Shown here: in pieces, positions 320-44,736 of the stretch | How the letters are laid out: each line of letters opens with the position of its first letter | How positions within the stretch are numbered: the stretch's first letter is position 1 | Source of the DNA: a virus | Taxonomy: Duplodnaviria > Heunggongvirae > Uroviricota > Caudoviricetes | Length of the DNA stretch: 47,797 nt | Virus record (IMG/VR): IMGVR_UViG_2571042438_000008 | Direction: 5' to 3' (one strand) | Made by a program: the position numbers and the translations under genes | Notes under the pieces: model-generated | What the model was told of the DNA's origin: nothing | Database searches by the model: none | The model's input: only the letters and a program-made list of their open reading frames with translations

Positions 320-3166
320 GTGAGTAAATTATTATTTACGATGACTGACGCCGGGCGTAAGGCGCTGGTTAATGCCAACAAGACTGGAACAAATAAAGTT
401 GAGATCGTTTCTGTTGGTTTAGGTAGTAGATATTATGCCACATCAACCACACAAACAAAAATAACAGATGAAATAAAGCGACTTACCACAATAGGAGGCA
501 AAGTCGTTTCTCCTGATACCATTCATGTAACTGCGAAGGATGATAGTAAAGATGAGTATGCTGTCCATACAATAGGTTTGTATACAAATAAAGGAACATT
601 GTTTGCTGTATACTCGCAAGAACAAGTAATAATAAATAAAGCATCTTCTACAATTGCTTTAATATCAAGTGATATAGCAATTAAAAATCTTGATACTAAA
701 AACATTACATTTGGTGATGTTGAGTTTATTAACCCTCCCGCAACCGAAACTGTTGTTGGAGTAGCAAGATTTGCTAATGAACAAGAAATTGATGCAGGTA
801 CAGATGATTCCCTGGCTGTTTCAGCAAAGCGGCTTAAGCAAGCTATTGTAAAACATGAGCAATCACGTAATCATCCTGATGCAACTTTAACATCAAAAGG
901 CATTGTTCAACTCAGTAATGCCACCAATAGCACGTCTGAAAAGCTCGCAGCGACGCCTAAGGCTGTTAAGGCTGCATATGACCTGGCTGACGGAAAATAT
1001 ACCGCCCAGAATGCCACCACGGCACAAAAAGGGATAGTTCAGCTCAGTAGTGCCACTAACAGTACGTCTGAAACGCAGGCGGCAACGCCAAAAGCGGTCA
1101 AGGCAGCAAATGACAACGCAAATTCACGTCTGGCGAAAAATCAGAACGGTGCAGATATCCAGGATAAATCAGCTTTTCTGGACAATGTTGGCGTTACCAG
1201 CCTGACGTTTATGAAAAACAATGGCGAAATGCCGCTTGATGCTGATCTGAATACGTTTGGTCCTGTTAAGGCTTATTCAGGTATCTGGTCTAAAGCAACA
1301 TCCACCAACGCAACACTGGAGAAAAATTTCCCGGAAGATAATGCTGTCGGTGTGCTTGAGGTTTTTGCTGCCGGCAATTTTGCAGGTACGCAACGCTTTA
1401 CCACGAGAGACGGCAATGTATACATGCGTAAACTCGCCAATAAGTGGAATGGCACTGATGGTCCGTGGGGCGTATGGCGTCACACTCAATCTGCTACCCG
1501 CCCTTTGAGTACGACTATAGACCTGAATACGCTTGGAGCCGCCGAGCATCTTGGTTTATGGCGTAACAGTAGCTCAGCTATAGCTTCATTTGCCCGCAAT
1601 TATCCGGAAGAAGGGAGCTATGCTCAGGGGATTCTCGAAGTTCTTGAAGGCGGCGGATATTCGCGAACACAGCGTTACACTACCAGTCGTGGAAATATGT
1701 ATGTACGCTGCCTTACCGCAAGCTGGGATGCATCAAATCCGCAGTGGGGACAGTGGCTAAGAATCGGCAGCCAGACTGCAAGCGGTTTCTTTGAAGGCGA
1801 TCTGAATAATCTGACCGATCCTGGTATTTACAGTGTTACAGGAAAGGCAACAAACGGTCCGATGCTGGACGCTGCTGGGGCGACATTGCTTGGGATACTG
1901 GAAGTAATCAGGCGTTTTGATGGTGTATCTGTCTGGCAGCGTTACACAACCACAGGAAAATCAGAAACCACACAGGGGCGCACTTTTGAGCGCGTCTACG
2001 CCGGGAGCACATGGACCGAATGGCGAGAAGTGTATAACTCCTTTTCGTTGCCCCTGAATCTGGGTATTGGCGGCGCAGTGGCAAAACTCACCAGCCTGGA
2101 CTGGCAGACCTACGACTTTGTGCCGGGCAGTCTGATAACCGTTCGGCTTGATAACATGACCAACATTCCCGACGGTATGGACTGGGGCGTCATTGATGGT
2201 AACCTGATAAACATCGCTGTTGGCCCAAGTGATGATACCGGTACGGGGCGCTCAATGAAGGTATGGCGCAGCACTGTAAGTAAAGCCAACTACCGCTTTT
2301 TTATGGTGCGCATTTCAGGAAATCCGGGAAGCCGCACGATCACAGCAAGACGAGTACCAATCATTGACGAAGCCCAGACATGGGGCGCGGAACAGACATT
2401 CAGCGGTGGTCTTTCAGGCGAACTATCCGGCAATGCTGCTACAGCAACAAAGCTGAAAACGGCAAGGACAATTAACGGCGTAAAATTTGACGGCTCGGCA
2501 AATATTGAAGCGTTTCCGCCAGGTGTTCCGCTGCCGTGGCCATCAGATACGCCACCTGCAGGTTATGCAATCATGCAGGGGCAGACGTTTGATAAGGCAG
2601 CATATCCGAAACTGGCTATTGCCTATCCTTCTGGTGTTATTCCAGATATGCGCGGCTGGACAATCAAGGGCAAACCCGCCAGTGGTCGGGCCGTATTGTC
2701 TCAGGAACAGGATGGCATTAAATCGCACACCCACAGTGCCAGCGCATCCAGTACGGATTTGGGTACGAAAACCACATCGTCGTTTGATTACGGTACTAAA
2801 TCAACGAATAACACAGGTGCACATACCCACAATGTATCTGGTACTGCAAATAGTGCTGGCGCACATACTCATACCGTTCCATTAAGGAGACCAAACAGTG
2901 GCGGTATGAATTTCGACTGGCTGGATGGTTCATCAAGTGGCACGGTGGTGGGGAATGGAACTGTGCCTTCTTCTGGCGCACATACCCACTCAGTATCAGG
3001 TACCGCTACAAGTGCTGGGGCACATGCACACACTGTTGGTATTGGCGCTCATACGCACTCTGTTAAGATTGGTTCACATGGACACACCATCACCGTTAAC
3101 GCTGCTGGTAACGCGGAAAACACCGTTAAAAACATCGCATTTAATTATATTGTGAGGCTTGCATAA
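320..3166 (+). CDS. Tail fibre protein (mosaic, side-tail-fibre type)
   Basis: 948 aa. Two copies of the conserved fibre repeat [24 protein letters not shown]. Three tandem ~85-aa knob-like repeats ([18 protein letters not shown] / [18 protein letters not shown] / [19 protein letters not shown]). The C-terminus carries GAHTHS/HxH repeats like T4 gp37, Mu S and lambda Stf-type fibres. It is followed by a Tfa gene. Confidence 0.9.
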
Positions 3167-3783
3167 TGGCATTCAGAATGAGTGAACAATCACGTACCGT
3201 AAAAATTTATAACCTGCTGGCCGGAACTAATGAGTTTATTGGTGAAGGTGACGCATATATTCCACCTCATACAGGGCTGCCAGCTAATTCTACAGATATC
3301 GCCCCACCGGAAATTCCTGCTGGCTTTGTGGCAGTTTTTAACAGTGAAAATGAATCGTGGAATATTGTTGAAGACCATCGTGGTAAAACGGTCTATGACG
3401 TGGCGTCGGGGGACGCATTGTTTATTTCTGAACTCGGACCGCTACCAGAGAATGTCACCTGGTTGTCGCCAGCAGGGGAGTATCAGAAGTGGGACGGCGT
3501 ATCCTGGGTGAATGATGAGGAAGCAGAAAAACTGTTTCGGATACGGGAAGCGGAAGAGAAAAAGGCAAGGTTGATCCAGGAAGCAACAGATAACATCGCA
3601 ATTCTGCAGGATGCAGTTAATCTTGAAATAGCAACAAACGAGGAAAATTCACAACTGGATTCCTGGAGAAAATACAGAGTATTAGTGAGTAGAATTGACA
3701 CCAGTACAGCTCCGGATATCGTATGGCCAGAGCTGATGAATCAGGGTTATGTTCGGGAGGACGAGCAGATAACTTCAGACTGA
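3166..3783 (+). CDS. tfa: Tail fibre assembly protein (Tfa / P2 G / Mu U family)
   Basis: The start overlaps the fibre stop (TAATG). The N-terminus ..[47 protein letters not shown].. is typical of the Tfa chaperone family. Confidence 0.85.
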
Positions 3784-4310
3784 AATTTAGTGATGAATGT
3801 TGAATCATCAGGAATATCATGCAATACCAATGCATGAGCACCTATTGTGACATTGTTTCCTATACGCACTTTGCCACCAAGAATGGTGGCATTACAACCA
3901 ATGGTCACATTATGCCCTATAACAATATCCATATCATTAAATTCCCCGCGAAGTCCAATAGTTACTCCGGGCTTAATTGAACAATTTTCACCGATTGTTA
4001 CTTTGTGACCGATAACAACACTGTTGAGATAAGAAATATCAAAGCCTTTCCCTATATTTACAGTTAAAGGGACTGTTACATTATATTTATCAAGAATGAA
4101 ACGTTCTATTTTTCCCGCAATCTTCCGACAGTATCCGCCTTTATCAAAAAGGTATTTGGCTATGCGCCACCAAAATAAATAACGAACCCTTCTATGTTTT
4201 ATTGCGCGAACAATTGCCTTTCGCCAGGAGAAAGGACGCTCGCTACCGATTACTTCATAGTGAATACAGTCTTTAAGTTCATTAATATTCATATCTTTAT
4301 TATTCAGCAT
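3747..4310 (-). CDS. Hexapeptide-repeat (LbH) O-acetyltransferase, WcaB/CysE-like; probable moron
   Basis: Repeated [LIV]-G-x4 hexapeptides ([49 protein letters not shown]). It is convergent with tfa and overlaps its 3-prime end by 37 bp. The region is visibly more AT-rich than its neighbours. Confidence 0.8.
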
Positions 4311-4725: not shown

Positions 4726-4740
4726 ACCACGTAACGTGGT
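4726..4740. promoter_or_regulatory. Perfect ACCAC-N5-GTGGT palindrome (operator-like) upstream of the repA control region
   Basis: The sequence is ACCACGTAACGTGGT. The same 5+5 palindrome occurs at the cI/cro intergenic region (14748, 14851) and downstream of cI (13997). Confidence 0.5.
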
Positions 4741-4782
4741 TATGATTGTGGGTGTCTGGTTGGAAAGTGACCAGATATGGAA

Positions 4783-4897
4783 ACAAAAAGCCCGCAGATA
4801 AATCTGCGGGCTTCTTGCGACATCCACGGAAAACCAACAACTAACCATGGGCGCCTCGACAACTCCCATTATACGTTGGTTTTCCGTGGACGCAAGA
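4783..4897 (-). ncRNA. Candidate CopA-like antisense RNA controlling repA
   Basis: Read on the minus strand there is a 22-bp interrupted stem (4814-4838 / 4875-4896) with a 36-nt loop. It is followed by the GC hairpin GCCCGCAGA-TTTA-TCTGCGGGC (4790-4811) and a U-run (complement of 4781-4789). A weak promoter-like TAGAGA-N17-TATGTT sits just upstream on the minus strand. The position immediately 5-prime of repA matches IncFII copA/copT. Confidence 0.55.
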
Positions 4898-4905
4898 GCG
4901 AACAT

Positions 4906-5754
4906 ATGGATAGACCAATGCCGTCTCTACGTTCAGCTTACGTTTGTAATTTGTCGCCGGAGTTCCAGCCTCCAAAGCACCATACGCACAAGCTGCCGCT
5001 GGTGTTATCTGATGCTTTACAGCGCATTAATGGGCGTGATCTTACGTGTGAGGTTGCGTTCTACGTTAATCAACCGTCAGAGCGGAAGCGCCGGATAAAC
5101 GAGCATCGTCGTCGGGCGATTAATGCTGTGATCGCTGCGATTTTGCACCATGTAAACATCATTTCTAAGCGGGTTCTGGCCAGTGCTGAGGCGTTGGCTG
5201 ATTTTTGCGGCCTGTCTACCGTATCCGAAGCTGGGAACAAGTCTATAACGCGCTGTACAAGGGCGTTGTCGCAACTGAAAGCGTTAGGTTTTATTGATTA
5301 TGAACGTCGCTGGGATCGGGTGAATAAACAGTATTGGCCAGCGAAAATAGAGATTCGTGATCAACTGCTGGAAACCGTTGGTATTACTGAACAAGCATGG
5401 AGACGTGCGGTTAGCCAGAAACTTAATTACTTCAATGCGAAGAATAGCGAACGGCTTAAAAAAGCGATAACGGAGGCTGATTATAAGCGTATTGTTATTC
5501 AGGAGCAGATGGAGAATGTATGGCATCAGAGGAAGACGGCCAGAGAGATAAAGGCAAAACAGAAAGCAGCGGAGAGAGCTGCGCGTCTTGTTCGGGAAAA
5601 GGGAGAGGCCGAACTTCGTCATCAAATCACTAGAGAGGTTAGCCAGGAATTTGCTGATGGCATGTATCCTGGAGCTGACCTTGCATATTTACGATCCCTC
5701 GTTGAGCAGCGTTATAACAGGTTAAGAAAGACCTGGAAATCACTCCAACATTAA
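4906..5754 (+). CDS. repA: Plasmid replication initiator, IncFII RepA family
   Basis: 282 aa from ATG 4906; the ORF is open from 4777 but that part is the hairpin region. The core RRAINAVIAAILHH..GNKSITRCTRALSQLKALGFIDYERRWD parallels the R1/R100 RepA1 core as I recall it (RRAIDALLQGLCFHY..GKLSITRATRALTFLSELGLITYQTEYD). A DnaA box and an AT-rich origin follow the gene. Confidence 0.85.
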   Translation: MDRPMPSLRSAYVCNLSPEFQPPKHHTHKLPLVLSDALQRINGRDLTCEVAFYVNQPSERKRRINEHRRRAINAVIAAILHHVNIISKRVLASAEALADFCGLSTVSEAGNKSITRCTRALSQLKALGFIDYERRWDRVNKQYWPAKIEIRDQLLETVGITEQAWRRAVSQKLNYFNAKNSERLKKAITEADYKRIVIQEQMENVWHQRKTAREIKAKQKAAERAARLVREKGEAELRHQITREVSQEFADGMYPGADLAYLRSLVEQRYNRLRKTWKSLQH

Positions 5755-7206: not shown

Positions 7207-7216
7207 AGGATTGAGC

Positions 7217-7564
7217 ATGTGGACGGTACTTTTTAGCCAGCGATTTGACGACTGGCTAAATGAGCAAGAAGACGCTCTTCAGGAAAAGGTTTTGGCTGAT
7301 TTGAAAAAGCTACAGGTTTACGGACCTGAGTTACCCAGGCCATATGCCGATACCGTAAAAGGTTCTCGGTACAAAAATATGAAAGAGCTTCGCGTTCAGT
7401 TTTCTGGCCGTCCGATAAGAGCCTTTTATGCGTTCGATCCGATTCGTCGGGCCATCGTTCTTTGTGCAGGAGACAAAAGTAACGATAAGCGGTTTTATAA
7501 AAAACTGGTGCGTATAGCTGAGGATGAGTTTGCAGCACATCTGAACACACTGGAGAGCAAGTAA
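7217..7564 (+). CDS. higB: Type II toxin, HigB-like / RelE-ParE superfamily (phage Gp49-type)
   Basis: 115 aa. The block ..YGPELPRPYADTVKGSRYKNMKELRVQFSGRPIRAFYAFDPIRRAIVLCAGDK.. is typical of the killer-protein family. The toxin-first order with an overlapping XRE antitoxin (ATGA-type junction) fits HigBA. Confidence 0.8.
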   Translation: MWTVLFSQRFDDWLNEQEDALQEKVLADLKKLQVYGPELPRPYADTVKGSRYKNMKELRVQFSGRPIRAFYAFDPIRRAIVLCAGDKSNDKRFYKKLVRIAEDEFAAHLNTLESK

Positions 7565-7863
7565 TGAGAACATTAGATGAGGTGATTGCCAGCCGTTCAC
7601 CTGAAAGCCAGGCGCGAATTAAAGAAATGGCAGATGAGATGATTCTTGAGGTCGGCTTGCAGATGATGCGTGAAGAACTCCAGTTATCACAAAAACAGGT
7701 TGCTGAGGCGATGGGTATAAGCCAGCCAGCAGTAACAAAGCTGGAGCAGCGCGGAAATGATTTAAAGCTGGCGACATTAAAGCGTTACGTTGAAGCTATG
7801 GGAGGCAAATTAAGCCTGGATGTTGAGCTTCCTACAGGAAAGCGAGTAGCGTTCCATGTCTAA
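7564..7863 (+). CDS. higA: Type II antitoxin, HigA-like XRE-family HTH
   Basis: The HTH is LSQKQVAEAMGISQPAVTKLEQ. The start overlaps the toxin stop. Confidence 0.8.
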   Translation: MRTLDEVIASRSPESQARIKEMADEMILEVGLQMMREELQLSQKQVAEAMGISQPAVTKLEQRGNDLKLATLKRYVEAMGGKLSLDVELPTGKRVAFHV

Positions 7864-9975: not shown

Positions 9976-11175
9976 TTATGGTCTGCTTTTCTGTGCCAGC
10001 TTATCAGCACATGTTTTTATCAGATCCTGTAGTGTCCTGGCTGGCAGGTTTGCATCCAGTACGCTGAGTATGCTGTTGTGATCTGCTTGGTCGACTACTT
10101 TGCCTGTCGGTGGTAGTAGCTTGAGCTGAGGATTCAGGTTTTCGTCAAAGCTGATAAGTGCTCTGGCGTTTCTGAGCAGATCAAGAAGTAAGGCTGATAT
10201 CACATTTTCCTGAGTCATTGCTGGCAGACTTAGCGCCGCTTTGGTTTTCCCTGTTGCCTTGTCAAACTCCTTGATTAGTTCCTTCCTGTAGTTCGGTTCC
10301 GTTAATAGCCGATTATGCTCTGTTGCCGCGCGGATAATCGTTTTTTCCTGGTATAGTCGTTTAGCCAGATCACGCTCGTACTGTGTTTTTAACACGCTGC
10401 TGATAGCGTTAAAGGCTTCAATGTAGGCCAGCTTGATATCTTTCACGCCTGGACCGTCGATGCTCTCCATGAGCAAGGTAAATCCGTCTTTTGTCATGCG
10501 ATAGATTGTTATTTCGCGGTCGCTTCCTTCCAGCGGTCGTTGCTCTTTAAAGAAGTGACGCGCCGCAGCCGTGCGAGGAATGCGTAGCGCATCGATGGCC
10601 ATAACGATGGAATTGTTTGTGGTGCTGAATGCCTGGGCAACATCGGCTGAGGTTGTGAGTGGCTCGTTGTTGCACACTTTAATGTAAAACATCGGTTTGG
10701 CGTTGAGCGTATCGACAACCTCACGAGCATTGCTTGGCGAGACGGTTACGGTCGCGGCCGTTTGCGCGTTCCGGCTGAAATAGCAGTCTTCCAGCCGTTC
10801 GAACACATCCCACGCTTGGTTAGTTTCAAGCATTTTGGCGTGACGTGCAGCCCCGCGTTCTGTCCAGAGAATGAGGGAGCGGGCTTTCGGGGAAATTTGT
10901 AACCCTCTTAAAGATGGTTGCACATTTTGTGAGTTACTTAAAGTAACCCGCAAATTTTGTGAGTGACTTAAAGTCACTCGCAAAGTTTTTAACTCATCGC
11001 CAGCCACTTTGAAAAAATGCTTTCCTTCAATAAAGCGGTTTGCGTTACGTGAGTAATTTTTTTTGATGTTATCAACGTCTGTGCCGTATAGCTTTGCCAG
11101 TAGTTCAGTAGTGATAACGGGGATCTGGTTATGCAGGATAGGCTGTAGGGTGTTAACGGTCGGAAGCGTTTTCAT
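9976..11175 (-). CDS. ant: Antirepressor-like protein (N-terminal ORF6N/KilA-N-like domain + Rha-like domain)
   Basis: The N-terminus IPVITTELLAKLYGTDVDNIKKNYSRNANRFIEGKHFFKV...ILWTERGAARHAKMLETNQAWDVFERLEDCYF is ORF6N-type. The middle EPLTTSADVAQAF..IYRMTKDGFTLLMESIDGPGVKDIKLAYIEAFN is Rha-type. The start overlaps the upstream ORF stop (ATGA). Confidence 0.8.
   Translation of the reverse strand: MKTLPTVNTLQPILHNQIPVITTELLAKLYGTDVDNIKKNYSRNANRFIEGKHFFKVAGDELKTLRVTLSHSQNLRVTLSNSQNVQPSLRGLQISPKARSLILWTERGAARHAKMLETNQAWDVFERLEDCYFSRNAQTAATVTVSPSNAREVVDTLNAKPMFYIKVCNNEPLTTSADVAQAFSTTNNSIVMAIDALRIPRTAAARHFFKEQRPLEGSDREITIYRMTKDGFTLLMESIDGPGVKDIKLAYIEAFNAISSVLKTQYERDLAKRLYQEKTIIRAATEHNRLLTEPNYRKELIKEFDKATGKTKAALSLPAMTQENVISALLLDLLRNARALISFDENLNPQLKLLPPTGKVVDQADHNSILSVLDANLPARTLQDLIKTCADKLAQKSRP
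10921..10980. repeat. Two tandem 30-bp repeats inside ant, each holding a 5-bp-arm palindrome (GTTAC-TTAAA-GTAAC / GTGAC-TTAAA-GTCAC)
   Basis: 10921-10950 and 10951-10980 differ at 4 positions. Two of those differences are compensatory (T:A to G:C) and preserve the palindrome. Confidence 0.8.
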
Positions 11176-11399
11176 TTTGCACCTCCCATAACTACTTTGG
11201 TTACGAGGGAGATTTTTGCGTCAGAAACAGCGTTATCGTTGCTGGCGATGCGCATAGCTTCGCGCTCGATGATTTCAGTCAGGCGGAATTTATCGGCGTA
11301 TGAGGCTTTCTTGAGAAGGATCTTTACGAGGTTGACGTAATAGTCATGGGGTAGGTTTGTCATTGTGATATCTCCAGTATATGGAACTATCACCGCCAT
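11172..11399 (-). CDS. Small protein translationally coupled to ant (position equivalent to P1 icd); alternative start ATG 11363 with a GGAG Shine-Dalgarno
   Basis: 75-aa ORF (63 aa from 11363). Its stop overlaps the ant start codon. I make no family call. Confidence 0.55.
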   Translation of the reverse strand: MAVIVPYTGDITMTNLPHDYYVNLVKILLKKASYADKFRLTEIIEREAMRIASNDNAVSDAKISLVTKVVMGGAK

Positions 11400-11413
11400 T
11401 CGAGGCTAATCAA

Positions 11414-11497
11414 ATGGTGGTGAGCCGTACAGGGTTAGCCTTACCGGACACAATGACGAACCGGCGCGGATTTCTCCGCCCCTGTACGACCCACCAT
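11414..11497 (-). ncRNA. Candidate structured regulatory RNA (c4-like) in the ant operon leader
   Basis: An 84-nt three-way structure. The outer stem is ATGGTGG/CCACCAT (7 bp), the second stem GTACAGGG/CCCTGTAC (8 bp), and the inner hairpins are GCGGA-TTTC-TCCGC (11466-11479) and CCGG..CCGG (11444-11464). The loop segment AGGCUAA (minus-strand RNA) is complementary to UUAGCCU, which occurs in two flanking direct repeats GAUUAGCCUC (11402-11411 and 11567-11576). Confidence 0.35.
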
Positions 11498-11525
11498 AAT
11501 TTGGGCGTAACAGTGCTCTACGCAT

Positions 11526-11545
11526 AAAAAAACCGCTAACGCGGT
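11526..11545 (-). terminator. Rho-independent terminator (minus strand) inside the ant leader
   Basis: On the minus strand ACCGC-GTTA-GCGGT is followed by T7. Confidence 0.65.
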
Positions 11546-11658
11546 ATGCGCCATCGTGTTATTCAGGAGGCTAATCCCGGCCGTAGATTTTGCTACGGCT
11601 CGGAAAGTGTCCACCAATGGCGCATTTATGTCAATACGGCGGGATTTTAACAGAGACA

Positions 11659-11807: not shown

Positions 11808-12116
11808 CAAAAGGTAATAATAGTCCACTATTATGCTTCAAAAAATTGTGGTTCTTGTTGTGCCTGCAAACTCACAGATTGTGGGTAGGTTACTGATTTT
11901 GTGAAAATAAACGAGTTTTTTCGTTTAATTTCTTTCCTATTACTAATCTTAAAATAATCGTAAAATACCTGTGGACCTTCCCGCCGATTCGCACCCGGGC
12001 ACCGACTTTAGGGGAGGATTCTCCGTTGCCGTACATGCAAGCACAAGCAGCCGTGCTTGCTCTCGCGTTGTTTTCGTCGGTGGGGATGCCGTGAAACGGC
12101 CTGTAAGGGCCATACA

Positions 12117-12239
12117 ATGAAAAAATACTGTATGTGTATTTTTATCGTTGTTACTGGGGCTTTGTTTACGCCACATGGGGAGGGTTGGAAGATTACTGAT
12201 AACGCTCTGAATGTGACGATAAACATTAGCAGCAAGTAG
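12117..12239 (+). CDS. Small hydrophobic peptide (40 aa), candidate type I toxin or small membrane/secreted protein
   Basis: MKKYCMCIFIVVTGALFTPHGEGWKITDNALNVTINISSK. A strong plus-strand terminator follows immediately. A TAAAAT -10-like hexamer at 11961-11966 would give a ~145-nt structured 5-prime UTR. The Shine-Dalgarno is weak. Confidence 0.4.
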   Translation: MKKYCMCIFIVVTGALFTPHGEGWKITDNALNVTINISSK

Positions 12240-12244
12240 CGATT

Positions 12245-12268
12245 AGGCCCCTTCGGGGGCCTTTTTTT
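12245..12268 (+). terminator. Rho-independent terminator (plus strand)
   Basis: AGGCCCC-TTCG-GGGGCCT followed by T7. Confidence 0.8.
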
Positions 12269-12278
12269 ATGGCTGAAT

Positions 12279-12428
12279 TTAAACGCTGGAGCGCATTAAG
12301 CCTTTCAGAACTGCTTCACGTACCCATTCTGGCCTGGTGGATAGCAGGGCAAATAAGCAGCCAGCTTGCAGCCGTTTGAGGTCGGTTAGACGAGTTTTCA
12401 GTAACCGTGTATATTGTTGCTCGGACAT
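12279..12428 (-). CDS. Small hypothetical protein (49 aa from ATG 12428)
   Basis: AAGGGGA Shine-Dalgarno 8 nt upstream. It is the last gene of the par operon direction. Confidence 0.4.
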   Translation of the reverse strand: MSEQQYTRLLKTRLTDLKRLQAGCLFALLSTRPEWVREAVLKGLMRSSV

Positions 12429-12490
12429 AACAAATTCCCCTTGTTGTGTCGCGACGGCCAACAGTTGGCGCTGGAGGCCGTCACCTTCTC

Positions 12491-12739
12491 TTACTTCTGG
12501 TTGTATTGAGCCTTGAGTAACTCAAAAGACTTTGTCAGCACTTCTTTCAATGACATATCCATTGAGCTGGCGAACGTTTTGTACTCGCGTTTAAATTCAG
12601 GGTCGACGTTAAACGCCATTTGTGCCCCACCTGATTTGGTTCTGGTTGGCGTTTCAGTCGGGTCGAAAACCTGCGGTTGTTCGATCGATGGCGGTACGCC
12701 TTTGCTGTTCTTCTTTGGTGGTTTTGATGGTGCGGCCAT
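12491..12739 (-). CDS. Small partition/centromere-binding protein, ParG/omega-like (disordered N-terminal tail + RHH-like C-terminus)
   Basis: 82 aa, directly downstream of parA. The C-terminus MAFNVDPEFKREYKTFASSMDMSLKEVLTKSFELLKAQ has a beta-alpha-alpha pattern. Its size and position fit type Ib par systems. Confidence 0.6.
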   Translation of the reverse strand: MAAPSKPPKKNSKGVPPSIEQPQVFDPTETPTRTKSGGAQMAFNVDPEFKREYKTFASSMDMSLKEVLTKSFELLKAQYNQK

Positions 12740-12751
12740 GTGTATCCCCTC

Positions 12752-12786
12752 TTATATAAATCTATAAAACTATAATTATATATTAT
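12752..12786. repeat. AT box (TTATATAAATCTATAAAACTATAATTATATATTAT) between parA and the parG-like gene
   Basis: Member of the dispersed AT-box family built from TATAATTATA and ATAAATCTATA words. Confidence 0.7.
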
Positions 12787-13451
12787 GCGGCAGTAGTCAG
12801 AGCCTCAAGCTGGTTGATAATCCCCTGAATAACGTCGTCTGCCTTTTTGCGTGGCGCAACGTATGAGCACTCAATGAGGCTTAAGCCCTTATCCTGAGCT
12901 TTGCTCAGAGCTGGCTTGTGGGGAATGTACTTATCGACAACAAAGTATGGCGTATTAGCCAGGTACTCTTGGGCTTCAATATAGTCAGCTTCGTTTTCAG
13001 CCGCGCCGGAAAACACCATGCAAATTTTCTTGATTGGTACACCCTTTTTAACGATGCCGTGAGCAGTGTTAACGGTGGTTTCCAGGTCATCGGTAGAGAA
13101 TCGGGTTGGCAAAATAACCATATCCAGAAATTCAGATAGCTTCGGTACTGATTCAGATGCGTAGGCACCGCCATCGACGATAACCAGGTCGTATACTTCT
13201 GATTCGATGATTTTCTGGACTTGTGATGGTGTGCCGCACGGCTGCGCCGCGATTGCTGGTTCGATATTGTTGGCCATTCTGCGTTGTACCCAACGCGTTA
13301 CCGTTCCGTTAAGCACATCCATATCGATCAGGCATACATTCCAGCCAGCCTTTGCATAAGCAACTGCTAAAGCACGGGCAATTGTTGATTTGGTTACGCC
13401 GCCTTTTCCGTTGAAAATACCTACAGAGATAGTCATTTGTCGAGGCTCCAT
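12783..13451 (-). CDS. parA: Partition ATPase ParA (type Ib, deviant Walker A)
   Basis: GKGGVTKST Walker A box. 222 aa with no N-terminal HTH extension. Confidence 0.9.
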   Translation of the reverse strand: MEPRQMTISVGIFNGKGGVTKSTIARALAVAYAKAGWNVCLIDMDVLNGTVTRWVQRRMANNIEPAIAAQPCGTPSQVQKIIESEVYDLVIVDGGAYASESVPKLSEFLDMVILPTRFSTDDLETTVNTAHGIVKKGVPIKKICMVFSGAAENEADYIEAQEYLANTPYFVVDKYIPHKPALSKAQDKGLSLIECSYVAPRKKADDVIQGIINQLEALTTAA

Positions 13452-13459
13452 GTGTTTGG

Positions 13460-13491
13460 TTATATAATTCTATAAATCTATATTTATAGAA
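13460..13491. repeat. AT box upstream of parA (TATATAATTCTATAAATCTATATTTATAGA)
   Basis: AT-box family member. Candidate centromere/operator. Confidence 0.7.
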
Positions 13492-13530
13492 CGAGGTAAG
13501 CATAACCAACTTTTTGGCTGATGAAAAGCG

Positions 13531-13565
13531 TTTTATATAATTATATAAATCTATAATCATATAAG
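13531..13565. repeat. AT box upstream of parA (TTTTATATAATTATATAAATCTATAATCATATAA)
   Basis: AT-box family member. Candidate centromere/operator. Confidence 0.7.
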
Positions 13566-13586
13566 CGGGCGTTAGCCCGCTTGCAG

Positions 13587-13961
13587 TCAGAGGTCAGCTA
13601 TCGTTGATATCAGTTGATTTGCTAGCTGTCGCTGTTTACGTGAGAGGGTTAGAGCAGCTTCTGAGCGGTCGCTAAGAGGGGGGGTTTCATCAAGAATCAT
13701 GAGGCATACAGAAATAATAGCCCTGTTATATGCCATCAATGGCTGGCACAGCTTCGATACCGCTGGCACATCGTATTGTAAGGCCGTTTTGAGGCAGACT
13801 TTTTGTTCTGATGCCAGATGAAGGATAGATTCTATCCAGTCGATATCTTTCTCATTATCAATGATTTGGCATAACATACACTCAATCGCTATGTTCAACG
13901 CTTGGATTTCGATTCCAGCAGTGATCAGAGTTTCGTTTTTATTGGCTGTATGTAATTCCAT
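13587..13961 (-). CDS. Hypothetical protein
   Basis: 124-aa ORF between cI and the par locus, with an AAGAGG Shine-Dalgarno. Confidence 0.6.
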   Translation of the reverse strand: MELHTANKNETLITAGIEIQALNIAIECMLCQIIDNEKDIDWIESILHLASEQKVCLKTALQYDVPAVSKLCQPLMAYNRAIISVCLMILDETPPLSDRSEAALTLSRKQRQLANQLISTIADL

Positions 13962-13996
13962 GCGTAGCCTCTTTTATACTTTTACATGTTGTCAAA

Positions 13997-14011
13997 ACCA
14001 CAAAATGTGGT
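13997..14011. promoter_or_regulatory. Perfect ACCAC-AAAAT-GTGGT palindrome
   Basis: Located between the cI stop and the next minus-strand gene, overlapping a TTGACA hexamer. Confidence 0.5.
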
Positions 14012-14053
14012 TTTTTTGAGCGTAGAAATGCACGGCTTTCGCCGTGCTGTGTA

Positions 14054-14710
14054 TCATAACCAGTTGACAACACTAACTACGCGGCCAAGAACTTTATAAC
14101 GCTTAAATTCCTCGTTATTCAGATGCTTAGTGTTCATTTCAGCATCCCTTTCGGTTGACAGCATAACAGCATTGTCACCCGGTATGACTCTACAGTGCCT
14201 CAAAACAACCAGGCCATTTCTGTCTTCAAGGGCATAGATCCCCTCATGAATCTCTGTATCGTCTGTATTAATCAGGACTTGGGAGCCTGGGGATATTGTT
14301 GGTGACATTAACTCATCGTTGCTCTGGAGAACTGACAGAGACGATGGGTTGATGTTCTTGCTTCGTAGAATCTCCTGTTCTATCGCCAGCACTGGCTTTT
14401 CTCCGGCGTGCGATGCTATGTCATTTTTTATAGCTACAAGCCCAGGAATAACAGGAGCGTTAGTATTCTGGGGTGGGAACGGGTTATCTGTTAAGCACGC
14501 GATATAAGGCGCTGATGCTTTCAGGGCGTGCGCGATTTTCTTGATGGCAGGTATAGATGGTTGTCTTAATCCGGCCTCATAGTTCTGCAAGGTGCTTAAG
14601 CCTATTCCAGTGACTTGCTGGAGATCTCCGGCAGTCATGCCGGATTGTTTCCGTAGAGTCTGAATGCGCAGACCTATTTCTTTCTTGATGTTCTCGTCGT
14701 TGCTTTTCAT
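14054..14710 (-). CDS. CI-like repressor (XRE HTH + S24 LexA-like C-terminal domain, catalytic dyad apparently substituted)
   Basis: The N-terminal HTH is MTAGDLQQVTGIGLSTLQNYEAG. The C-terminus aligns by eye to the S24 fold: DELMSPTISPGSQVLIN against GDSMEPTI.dGd.vlv, and GLVVLRHCRV against ..vvKRl... The gene is divergent from a Cro-like gene across an operator-rich region. Confidence 0.85.
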   Translation of the reverse strand: MKSNDENIKKEIGLRIQTLRKQSGMTAGDLQQVTGIGLSTLQNYEAGLRQPSIPAIKKIAHALKASAPYIACLTDNPFPPQNTNAPVIPGLVAIKNDIASHAGEKPVLAIEQEILRSKNINPSSLSVLQSNDELMSPTISPGSQVLINTDDTEIHEGIYALEDRNGLVVLRHCRVIPGDNAVMLSTERDAEMNTKHLNNEEFKRYKVLGRVVSVVNWL

Positions 14711-14747
14711 GTCTCATCAATCGTGAATGGTGGGTTATTTATACATT

Positions 14748-14762
14748 ACCACATTTAGTGGT
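14748..14762. promoter_or_regulatory. Operator: perfect ACCAC-ATTTA-GTGGT
   Basis: In the cI/cro divergent intergenic region. Confidence 0.6.
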
Positions 14763-14850
14763 TTTCACATGGTAAGACGAGAGGTGGACCACAAATAGAA
14801 GGTTATTTTTTGTTTCGCCCATTGAAAAACTCACGATATGTGGTTTTAAT

Positions 14851-14865
14851 ACCACGTATCGTGGT
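14851..14865. promoter_or_regulatory. Operator: perfect ACCAC-GTATC-GTGGT
   Basis: In the cI/cro intergenic region. Degenerate relatives lie at 14788-14804 (ACCAC-AAATA-GAAGGTT) and 14830-14844 (CTCAC-GATAT-GTGGT). Confidence 0.6.
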
Positions 14866-14884
14866 TTTAACTGGAGTTCGTTAA

Positions 14885-15379
14885 ATGACCTTTCAGGAGT
14901 GGGTTGACGAAAATGGAGGCCAAATTGGTGTTGCCAGAAAGTTTTGCTTTACGTCATCACTGATTGGTGCCTGGTATCGCTTCGAGAGATTCCCTCGTGC
15001 GGATAACCTGACGCTGCTGGTGGCGTATTCGGAAGGCCGGATTAACGTCCAGCAATGGGCGGCAGATTTTGCCGAACGTCAGCGCCAGCGTAGCGATGGC
15101 ACATCGGTTCGGCAGAACAAGATCAAAGGGAATCTCCCTGTTAACTGCTTATCAAGGCTGAAAGCGGTTTTCTCTGAGCTGGGGATGCCTGCGGAGCGTT
15201 GCAATCTACGCGGTCCGCGATTCATTGCTCGCTGGAAACACTCACACGTAACCGTTTCAGAGGTTCGTGATGCGATTACCGTGCTGGAGCTTAAGAATAA
15301 AGATTCCAGCGATATCGAGCTGATTCATAAGGAGATTAGCAACGCCCGGCGTTCAGCACTTGGGAGGCTTGAGGAATGA
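14885..15379 (+). CDS. Cro/YdaS-like HTH protein with C-terminal extension (first gene of rightward operon)
   Basis: Divergent from cI. The N-terminus QEWVDENGGQIGVARKFCFTSSLIGAWYRFERFP resembles the Cro/YdaS-type HTH. Confidence 0.55.
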   Translation: MTFQEWVDENGGQIGVARKFCFTSSLIGAWYRFERFPRADNLTLLVAYSEGRINVQQWAADFAERQRQRSDGTSVRQNKIKGNLPVNCLSRLKAVFSELGMPAERCNLRGPRFIARWKHSHVTVSEVRDAITVLELKNKDSSDIELIHKEISNARRSALGRLEE

Positions 15380-15891: not shown

Positions 15892-16121
15892 GTAGTTATG
15901 TTCGCGGTGCTGCGATGCATTGCCAGAATCCCCAATTCTGGCGCTTTCTGACCAGTAAAACAGGGAAGAACGTTTCAAACAGTTCTGAGGCCTCTGTGAT
16001 TCTGCGTGAGTTTTGCGGGATCTCATCCCGTAAAGAGCTGGCAAAGAACTACGCGGCCAGAAGCATGTATGTCCAGTTAATCAACGAGTTCAACCTCTTT
16101 ATCAATGGTAAGGGGCGCTGA
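15888..16121 (+). CDS. Hypothetical protein
   Basis: 77-aa ORF with overlapping start and stop on both sides. Confidence 0.55.
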   Translation: MSSYVRGAAMHCQNPQFWRFLTSKTGKNVSNSSEASVILREFCGISSRKELAKNYAARSMYVQLINEFNLFINGKGR

Positions 16122-16525
16122 TGAACGGACGTACACCAACGAAGAAAGAGAAACTTTATATACAAGCGGTGCTCACTCACGTGGGTTGCATAGCTTGCAT
16201 TATTGATGGCCGTGAAATTGAGAATCCAGAGCTGTGGACGGAGCTACATCACGATCCTGATTACGGCAGCGTTGATGAGAATTGCCACTTCCATAGCTTT
16301 GGGTTGTGCGCACCACATCATCGCGGTGTTGTGCCTGGTGGTGGGCGTGTGCCTCCGCATATTGCCGTTCGTCACCCTCCCCTGAGTAATTGTGCTCGCT
16401 TTGTTGAGCGTTATGGCACAGATGAATTTTTGTGTGCGCAGACGTGGGAGCTGTTGCCGCAGTCAGTTAAAGACGAAATTGGGTTTGATCTTAGTCTTGG
16501 TGAAGTACCAGGGGATACCAAATGA
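16121..16525 (+). CDS. HNH-type nuclease, P1 Ref-like (recombination enhancement) family
   Basis: The Cys/His pattern GCIACI..ELHHDP..FGLCAPHHRG is as I recall it for Ref-family proteins. The gene sits in an early operon. Confidence 0.5.
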   Translation: MNGRTPTKKEKLYIQAVLTHVGCIACIIDGREIENPELWTELHHDPDYGSVDENCHFHSFGLCAPHHRGVVPGGGRVPPHIAVRHPPLSNCARFVERYGTDEFLCAQTWELLPQSVKDEIGFDLSLGEVPGDTK

Positions 16526-37178: not shown

Positions 37179-37522
37179 TGAACTCCTTCAAAGAGGTTAT
37201 AGCGCAAGATATTTCTGCAATATTCCTCAATGAAAAAGAGTTTGCCGATACATATAACATAGACGGCAAGGATATCCTTGCCGTTATTGATACAGACCTT
37301 ATTCATGAGCGTAATAAACGCTCATATGCTGAGTTTGCAGAGGGAATAAATCAGGGGCAAATAATATTATTTGTTTCAAGAAAAGATTTTCCTGTTCTCC
37401 CTGTCAAAGACCAGTCAATGAAAATCAACGGTAAAAGTTATATTGTTGATGAAGTATCAGATAATGTTGGTGTATTGGAAATAACTCTCACTGTTAATAC
37501 TAACAGAGGAATGCCGATTTGA
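37178..37522 (+). CDS. Head-tail connector/adaptor candidate
   Basis: 114-aa ORF with an overlapping junction, positioned between the head and tail modules. Confidence 0.5.
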   Translation: MNSFKEVIAQDISAIFLNEKEFADTYNIDGKDILAVIDTDLIHERNKRSYAEFAEGINQGQIILFVSRKDFPVLPVKDQSMKINGKSYIVDEVSDNVGVLEITLTVNTNRGMPI

Positions 37523-43745: not shown

Positions 43746-44736
43746 AACGCTTTTTGATGTTATATATCAGAATGTAAATATTACCGCTCATATGTCACCT
43801 GATGTTTTGTCAATGTCTTATACAGATAATGAAGATGGTCAGGTCGATGATATTTCTATTATATTAAAAAATGATGATGGGAAATGGTCTGGAGACTGGA
43901 CACCTAAAAAGGGTGATTTTATTGATTTGAGCTTTAAGCCTATAAATCAAATCGTCCTTGAGTGCGGGAAATTCCAGGTAGATGGCATAACTTGCTCTGG
44001 ACCACCTTCTGTGGTTGAGGTAACTGCTGTTTCTGTTCCTATTTCATCAGGCATTAGACGTGATTTAAAAAGTAATGCATGGGAAAAAACAACTCTTAAA
44101 GATATAGCAACTTCTATAGCTAAATTAGCTAACCTTGAACTGTTGTTTCTTATTGATGGTGATAGTAATCCATATTATGCACGTGAAGATCAAATGGAGG
44201 AAAGCGATTTAAAATTTCTCCATCGACTTTGCCAGGATGAAGGGTTGTCGTTAAAGGTCACTGATAGCCAATTAATAATATTTGCTCAAGAGATGTTTGA
44301 GCAAAAAGATCCTATCGCTACGCTTACGTTAGGTATTGATGAGATAATCAGATATAGCTTTAGCACACAATCTACAGATTTGTATAAAAGTTGCACGTGC
44401 AAATATCGCGTACCTAAAAAAAGAAAGTCGCTTTCGTATACTTGGGTAGATCCATCCGTAGAAGAAGGGTCGAATCTTAAGATAAGAAAACTGGTAGCTA
44501 ATTTAGATGAAGCAAAACGTAAGGCAAAGGCTGCTTTGCGGCTTAAAAATAGATATCAAAATACCGGATCTTTAGTATTGGTTGGAGACACCAGATTGGT
44601 AGCTGGTGTAACTATAAATCTGGAGGGATTCGGTTCATTTTCTGGAAAATATCTTATATCGAAAGCTGTGCATTCAATTGGGACTAGTGGTTATACCACC
44701 TCGATTGATGTCCGAAGAGTAATTAATGGGTATTAA
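43735..44736 (+). CDS. Baseplate hub / late control gpD-like protein
   Basis: 333 aa, positioned after X and before the spike. The size and position fit gpD/Mu gp44-type proteins. Confidence 0.65.
   Translation: MLRKTLFDVIYQNVNITAHMSPDVLSMSYTDNEDGQVDDISIILKNDDGKWSGDWTPKKGDFIDLSFKPINQIVLECGKFQVDGITCSGPPSVVEVTAVSVPISSGIRRDLKSNAWEKTTLKDIATSIAKLANLELLFLIDGDSNPYYAREDQMEESDLKFLHRLCQDEGLSLKVTDSQLIIFAQEMFEQKDPIATLTLGIDEIIRYSFSTQSTDLYKSCTCKYRVPKKRKSLSYTWVDPSVEEGSNLKIRKLVANLDEAKRKAKAALRLKNRYQNTGSLVLVGDTRLVAGVTINLEGFGSFSGKYLISKAVHSIGTSGYTTSIDVRRVINGY

Follow-up and report, generated by a model that had tools for sequence, protein, structure and literature searches.

The repressor gene at this locus raises the question of how lysogeny could be ended if the protein that maintains it is unable to cut itself. 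The window, by which we mean the whole stretch of 47,797 nt of viral DNA that was analyzed (IMG/VR record IMGVR_UViG_2571042438_000008), encodes a CI-like repressor. According to the original prediction this repressor has lost the Ser/Lys catalytic dyad of the S24 peptidases, and induction would proceed through an antirepressor operon under RNA control instead of through RecA-stimulated self-cleavage. We followed this up with profile searches, alignments, structure prediction and a comparison with four relatives (L005–L008).

Domain Organization of the Repressor

14054..14710, minus strand: immunity repressor gene, 218-aa ORF
Repressor residues ~11–70: XRE HTH
Repressor residues ~76–106: variable linker
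Repressor residues ~107–218: LexA/S24-fold domain, predicted to be catalytically dead

The gene lies exactly where it had been placed, and its product has the expected organization of an XRE HTH followed by a LexA/S24-fold C-terminal domain (CTD), as seen in Pfam, in profile searches and in an AlphaFold model. The N-terminal part is an HTH of the XRE/Cro-C1 type, as in CI-type immunity repressors. Pfam HTH_3 matches residues 16–69 (E = 4.5e-11), and a profile search of the PDB returned the HTH domains of 434, P22 C2 and SinR at about 1e-10 to 1e-11. Among the PHROG families, phrog_4 “transcriptional repressor” is matched over the full length of the protein (E = 9.6e-27) and phrog_6201 “CI-like repressor” by its C-terminal part.

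The CTD escapes the usual annotation. Pfam Peptidase_S24 matches residues 113–212 at 18.4 bits, below the cut-off of 23.3 bits, the NCBIfam matches are to HTH models only, and the public PGAP annotation reads “helix-turn-helix domain-containing protein” and nothing more. Annotation pipelines thus miss the S24-fold domain after loss of the dyad. A search of the PDB with the single sequence returned HTH domains only and no S24 structure, and hhalign of a 10-sequence family profile against a single LexA sequence gave a probability of 0.1.

Using a word-indexed search, we found 12 close homologues with 60–100% identity in E. coli, Citrobacter, Klebsiella, Yokenella and Salmonella, and an exhaustive profile search with the CTD yielded 636 relatives at E ≤ 1e-3. 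The CTD profile matched UmuD′ (1.7e-5) and LexA chains in the PDB, and a profile built from 112 canonical domains carrying both Ser and Lys scored the repressor at 75 bits. The AlphaFold2 model made with a 133-sequence alignment has a pLDDT of 92.2; it superseded a run with only the 12 close homologues, in which the pLDDT of the CTD was below 50. The CTD has the LexA/signal-peptidase-like beta fold of the S24 family, with detectable homology. Based on the confidence of the model, the PDB profile matches and the score of the canonical profile, we conclude that the domain assignment is correct and that, by its sequence, the CTD is a true homologue of the LexA/lambda CI/UmuD (S24) domain, beyond mere resemblance.

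The Catalytic Positions and the Cleavage Site

14309..14311, minus strand: codon of Leu134, which three alignments place where S24 peptidases have their nucleophile Ser (LexA S119); invariant in the 12-member family
14198..14203, minus strand: codons of Leu170 and Arg171, the two candidates for the position of the general-base Lys (LexA K156), from the canonical profile and from MAFFT, respectively

The catalytic positions were located in three alignments: an hmmsearch family profile with 150 remote relatives, a MAFFT L-INS-i alignment with LexA, lambda CI and UmuD, and the 112-domain canonical profile. The catalytic residue numbers of the LexA, CI and UmuD sequences used with MAFFT came out correct; the alignment of GDSM and VKKL was reproduced with the deposited UmuD sequence when the CTD profile was compared with the PDB. 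Every alignment made places D132-E133-L134-M135-S136-P137-T138-I139 on G-D-S-M-E-P-T-I without gaps, and all three put L134 in the column of LexA S119, CI S149 and UmuD S60. Thus, the Leu that had been read by eye at the position of the nucleophilic Ser is indeed there.

For the general-base Lys the alignments give two neighboring positions. The canonical profile aligns V169-L170-R171-H172 with v-K-R-l, which puts the Lys on L170, and an ungapped comparison of GLVVLRHCRVIPGD with relatives of the GLVVKRLQRMITGD type likewise places the Lys on Leu170 and the Arg that follows it on Arg171. MAFFT with LexA, CI and UmuD, where the hairpin is one residue longer, puts the Lys on R171 instead. We favor Leu170; the DSSP strands of the model (157–162 and 168–176) would fit this register if G157 corresponds to the Gly of UmuD G-D-I-V. 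The register V-L-R-H of the original prediction, with Leu in place of Lys, is therefore the one given by the canonical profile and the ungapped comparison. At either position the Lys has been lost, and there is no Lys in the repressor between K118 and K195. The HMM-based alignment, run as a check on the reading by eye, places neither Ser nor Lys at the catalytic positions.

The column of the LexA A84-G85 bond reads PG, SG, PQ, SS, TT or NN in the family. The linker of the repressor does contain an Ala102-Gly103 pair, and the homologues have SG, TG, AG, P-G, GS or P-D there, so the pair is not conserved.

The nucleophile Ser, the general-base Lys and a conserved Ala-Gly (or Cys-Gly) scissile bond, three defining features of the S24 family, are thus absent, and the repressor should therefore be filed as a non-peptidase homologue and not as an S24 peptidase. 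As judged from the alignments, its S24-fold domain is a pseudo-enzyme with non-catalytic residues at both positions of the dyad. Because the Ser and Lys are gone, RecA-stimulated self-cleavage of the repressor is very unlikely, given the established mechanism of the S24 autopeptidases.

Conservation of the Putatively Inactive Domain

Ten residues around the former active site (D132, L134, M135, P137, T138, I139, R171, H172, C173 and R174) are invariant in the 12 homologues, and S136 varies between S and A. The tetrapeptide R171-H172-C173-R174 (codons 14199–14188, minus strand) lies on the strand that formerly carried the catalytic base; present in 12/12 close homologues, it is also found in the remote relative P0018, and in the wider Ser-less clade it reads R-[W/F/R]-[G/A/V/I]-R.

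Selection was assessed in four family members, among which synonymous sites are near saturation (pS 0.53–0.88). The CTD has a pN of 0.14–0.28 at a pS of 0.53–0.74, and dN/dS is 0.10–0.22 where it could be estimated. The pN of the HTH is 0.07–0.12, and the linker, the expected place of any cleavage site, is at 0.32–0.48 the least constrained of the three regions. The low pN of the CTD at near-saturated pS indicates that the dead domain is kept by purifying selection for some function and is not decaying.

Among 148 remote representatives, 93 have the Ser, the Lys and the cleavage-site Gly. The Ser is missing in 28, with 22 of these also lacking the Lys and 19 having Arg there, and the closest remote relatives of the repressor are all in this Ser-less group. 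A relative is encoded in 83 genomes of Vibrio phages, and the one examined, K334, has a Lys-less L-R-W-I-R strand. The repressor of Haemophilus phage SuMu, a weak tblastn match, was considered as a further degenerate example and rejected, since it has the canonical AG, Ser and Lys. Within this sample, loss of the dyad is frequent (∼20% of the remote relatives) and usually concerted.

Candidate Operators and the Early Operon

14748..14865: candidate operator cluster in the divergent intergenic region between cI and the early operon, with ACCACATTTAGTGGT (14748), CTCACGATATGTGGT (14830, two mismatches) and ACCACGTATCGTGGT (14851)
13997..14011: operator-type palindrome ACCACAAAATGTGGT, directly past the repressor stop and ahead of orf124-parA-orf82; position conserved in L005–L008
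11659..11673: one-mismatch palindrome of the operator type, preceding the −35 of the isrK/ant promoter by 25–39 bp
4726..4740: operator-type palindrome without mismatch, ahead of the IncFII-type repA (4777..5754)
44001–44015: exact operator-type palindrome within a tail ORF
14885..15379, plus strand: first gene of the early (lytic) operon, in the Cro position (phrog_7452)

The motif ACCAC-N5-GTGGT occurs in five exact copies in the window, where 0.01 would be expected. Two exact palindromes and one with two mismatches fall within the 174 bp that separate the repressor gene from the early operon (14710–14885). Hence, the repressor gene diverges from an early lytic operon across repeated operator-type sites, the arrangement of a CI-type repressor. 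Further down the early operon, Pfam identifies a Ref-like nuclease, a DUF1064 gene and a DUF3560/primase-like gene, and this synteny is conserved in L005–L008. The nuclease gene (16121–16525, plus strand, PF16786), which resembles the RecA-dependent Ref of P1, is the sole obvious RecA-linked function on the element, the repressor itself being predicted not to respond to RecA.

Exact copies of the palindrome with other spacers are found at the intergenic region and at the post-stop site in all four relatives, and upstream of repA in L005, L006 and L008. The repressors of these relatives are 61–65% identical to that of the window with an invariant recognition-helix region, which fits the conservation of the palindrome. 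The HTH most likely binds these 15-bp ACCAC-N5-GTGGT palindromes, as predicted from motif and helix. The copies outside the intergenic region suggest that the repressor also touches the replication and partition genes.

LexA Boxes

It had also been noted that no LexA box was apparent near the promoters, and this holds for the whole window: neither a motif search nor a weight matrix gave a box above chance. The sequence CTGT-N8-ACAG occurs once, at 37491 within a structural gene, with 0.5 occurrences expected by chance. A 20-bp LexA weight matrix based on 22 SOS boxes of E. coli, which themselves score 12.3–25.4 bits, reaches 13.4 bits at best, in the tape-measure ORF; in shuffled sequence the maximum averages 12.7 bits. 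No LexA box was found in the immunity regions of the four relatives either. In the lysis region of L007, from Klebsiella aerogenes, CTGT-N8-ACAG is present at 96–115 with a score of 14.6 bits.

The Candidate Antirepressor Module

11634–11606, minus strand: promoter TTGACA-17-GACACT just upstream of isrK, read from the sequence
11526..11599, minus strand: isrK-family RNA at the 5′ end of the ant operon (Rfam RF01394, 68 bits, cut-off 50)
11413..11501, minus strand: C4-family antisense RNA of the P1/P7 immI type (Rfam RF01695, 70.8 bits, cut-off 45)
11172..11399, minus strand: 75-aa ORF from the ORF list, its stop overlapping the ant start (ATGA), in the position of P1 icd
9976..11175, minus strand: Ant, candidate antirepressor of 399 aa that combines ORF6N and pRha domains (Pfam ORF6N, E = 4.5e-20; Phage_pRha, E = 4.6e-12)

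The candidate antirepressor module lies 3 kb from the repressor gene and consists, in this order, of a promoter, isrK, C4, the 75-aa ORF and Ant. Elaborate RNA control in front of ant had been mentioned, and the two Rfam matches, both above cut-off, confirm that RNA elements of this kind are located there. The immI region of P1 is laid out as c4-icd-ant, and the window likewise has a C4 RNA upstream of a small leader ORF that is coupled to ant. The operator-like site near the ant promoter is located upstream of the −35 and does not overlap the promoter.

Ant matches several anti-repressor families in PHROGs (best E = 4e-59), of which phrog_8244 is matched end to end. In the 100%-identical plasmid p142_C (L002, 2699–3415), PGAP annotates ant as a 238-aa “Rha family transcriptional regulator,” compared with the full ORF of 399 aa. 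Since phrog_8244 is covered end to end by the full ORF, the start chosen in the public annotation is probably an internal one.

Proposed Switch and Alternatives

Our preferred reading, to which we assign a probability of roughly 0.7, is that the protein is the primary immunity repressor of the element, that its CTD is a pseudo-enzyme, that it is not cleaved, and that RNA-gated Ant is its likeliest off-switch; operator binding, dimerization, non-cleavage and inactivation by Ant are the parts of it that we infer. The XRE HTH would bind the palindromes at the early operon, at the post-stop site and upstream of repA. The CTD would presumably let the repressor dimerize and bind its operators cooperatively, a role that this fold has in lambda CI and 186 CI. 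Since the repressor would be unable to cut itself, RecA filaments could not inactivate it directly. The likeliest off-switch would be Ant, which may inactivate the repressor by protein-protein contact. Synthesis of Ant would be gated post-transcriptionally by the C4-like and IsrK-like RNAs together with the translationally coupled leader ORF, by analogy with P1 immI, and Ant would be released when the C4/IsrK control is overcome. Of the original claim that induction bypasses RecA, the first half is strengthened by the lost dyad, the unconserved Ala-Gly pair and the missing LexA box; the second half, the route through Ant, is carried forward here as a proposal.

The repressor might instead be inactivated by something other than Ant, such as a host protease (Lon, ClpXP), another small antirepressor encoded by the phage, or dilution or copy-number effects of the plasmid prophage; the role of ant would then be confined to superinfection or heteroimmunity, like that seen in P22 and P1. 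This could account for L007, where the immunity region is syntenic and no C4, isrK or pRha gene is found in the 2.8 kb from 12213 to 15003, after the par genes; because of L007, Ant may not be obligatory. However, the L007 contig ends at that point, which leaves the absence unproven, and the C4-pRha module is present at the same locus in the three other relatives (L005, L006 and L008), two of which have isrK as well. The architecture of Ant does vary, the proteins of the relatives being pRha-only and 138–259 aa long, the ant promoter has neither a LexA box nor an overlapping operator, and many small unannotated ORFs surround the immunity region, all of which would leave room for another factor. 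Yet among the ∼25 neighboring proteins that were scanned there is no ImmA/COG2856-type protease and no other recognizable antirepressor. On balance, we consider inactivation by a factor other than Ant unlikely.

A role in plasmid maintenance instead of lysogeny, with immunity encoded elsewhere, was also considered. The gene points in the same direction as orf124, parA and the gene for the 82-aa partner, which follow it directly; it could thus head a cI-orf124-parA-orf82 operon and regulate repA, in line with the palindromes past its stop and ahead of repA. Nevertheless, the long divergent early operon and the three palindromes in the 174-bp gap form the classical cI/cro layout, the PHROG repressor match to phrog_4 is full-length, and a second CI-like or C1-like repressor was not encountered, which makes an exclusive maintenance role highly improbable. 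The two roles are not mutually exclusive; the CB repressor of N15 reportedly also controls repA.

It is just as hard to believe that the repressor still cleaves itself or responds to RecA through substitute residues such as His172/Cys173 or Arg171, with a cut at Ala102-Gly103: the invariant R171-H172-C173-R174 on the former Lys strand and the Ala-Gly pair would speak for it, but there is no substitute for the Ser (position 134 is invariant Leu, and the neighboring S136 varies between S and A), the wider Ser-less clade has W, F or R in place of the His and G, A, V or I in place of the Cys, neighboring residues of a beta-strand face opposite sides, and A102-G103 is unconserved in the least constrained segment of the protein.

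Our preferred reading, a non-cleaved repressor with Ant as its off-switch, can be extended. The relic S24 cleft could be the docking site of Ant, the repressor palindromes could couple lysogeny, partition and replication, and induction could be SOS-independent, timed by RNA and specific to this lineage. In this full form we regard the extension as rather improbable.

Comparison With Known Systems

The closest precedent is the CI repressor of phage 186 (PDB 2FJR/2FKD), which shares with the window repressor a LexA-like fold devoid of the Ser/Lys dyad. 186 CI lacks the canonical active site, the position of the base being taken by Arg152 (PMC12984324); what inactivates it is the antirepressor Tum and not cleavage (PMC3121763). 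No relationship between the two was detected at the level of sequence: identity in structural alignments is 13–15%, and the 186 CI chains are absent from the 19 PDB matches of the CTD profile (E ≤ 0.01), among which UmuD and LexA do appear. They differ in that the nucleophile peptide is partly deleted in 186 CI, whereas in the window repressor the G-D-S-M-x-P-T-I block is intact apart from substitutions. Moreover, Tum is under LexA control, while the window has no LexA box above chance and its candidate antirepressor appears to be gated by RNA. Lambda CI, P22 C2, LexA and UmuD are autopeptidases of MEROPS family S24; the nucleophile Ser, the Lys base and a conserved Ala-Gly site are all missing in the window repressor.

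With regard to the antirepressor, the arrangement of a C4-family and an isrK-family RNA ahead of a small ORF coupled to the antirepressor gene is like that of P1/P7 immI and of isrK-orf45-anrP in Gifsy-1, where IsrK controls translation of the antirepressor AnrP (PMC4825925). The primary repressor of P1, C1, is by contrast not of the XRE/S24-fold type, and the Ant of the window is a fusion of ORF6N and pRha.

Non-cleaved repressors that are inactivated by antirepressors have been described for the Gifsy phages, 186 and N15 (PMC3121763). Gifsy GfoR/GtgR, N15 CB and SPC32H Rep resemble the window in having a non-cleaved repressor and induction by an antirepressor, both of which are predicted on the side of the window. 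With a length of only 136 aa, the Gifsy repressors have no CTD, whereas the window repressor keeps its CTD, and the antirepressor genes of Gifsy, N15 and SPC32H are controlled by LexA, for which no box was found in the window. A repressor with a degenerate S24 fold is thus of an already known kind, and the window brings little that is conceptually new after 186 CI/Tum, Gifsy, N15 and SPC32H.

The Element and Its Relatives

The window represents a nearly complete circular phage-plasmid of ∼48 kb with an IncFII-type repA, a ParA and a myovirus structural module. Its immunity region is 99% identical to that of the Yersinia phages vB_YpM_39/41/44, and ∼66 non-mobilizable plasmids of 46–51 kb from E. 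coli, Salmonella and Klebsiella, for example p142_C (NZ_CP048340.1), are 96–100% identical to the window. These phages and the p142_C-type plasmids are its only closest matches. An N15-like identity was rejected, and so was membership in the pSLy3/SSU5 group of phage-plasmids, pSLy3 being a member of the SSU5 supercommunity (PMC7969092). Yersinia phage HQ103 is an unrelated 32-kb P2-like phage. The group of the element was not found in the phage-plasmid typing papers examined, and searches of the literature on the repressor or its phage family yielded a genome mention only.

The element is common, being present as near-identical plasmids in E. coli, Salmonella and Klebsiella from clinical and animal sources and as free Yersinia-infecting phages, and it is therefore useful to know that its lysogeny switch appears not to be wired to RecA self-cleavage or LexA. 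Screens for induction by mitomycin or UV, and the release of phage triggered by antibiotics, may turn out differently here than for lambdoid prophages.

Several further features of the element were observed. The ryfA RNA family has a strong match between the ant operon and the partition genes (11971–12267, plus strand, 141.8 bits, cut-off 80); this ryfA-like element may be a small toxin/sRNA addiction module. The ORF at 7211..7564 (plus strand) encodes a Gp49/HigB-like toxin (Pfam PF05973) and is followed by a 99-aa ORF at 7564..7863, the counterpart of which in relatives is an HTH_37/HTH_3 antitoxin, so that the pair resembles a toxin-antitoxin module. Finally, a 187-aa ORF (3747–4310, minus strand) adjoins two long ORFs at 320..3166 and 3166..3783 (plus strand), which are putative tail-fiber genes. 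By its position it may be the hin-like DNA invertase annotated in vB_YpM_41. The long putative tail-fiber ORF has 948 aa, compared with 744 aa in its presumed counterpart in vB_YpM_41, which would fit an invertible host-range segment.
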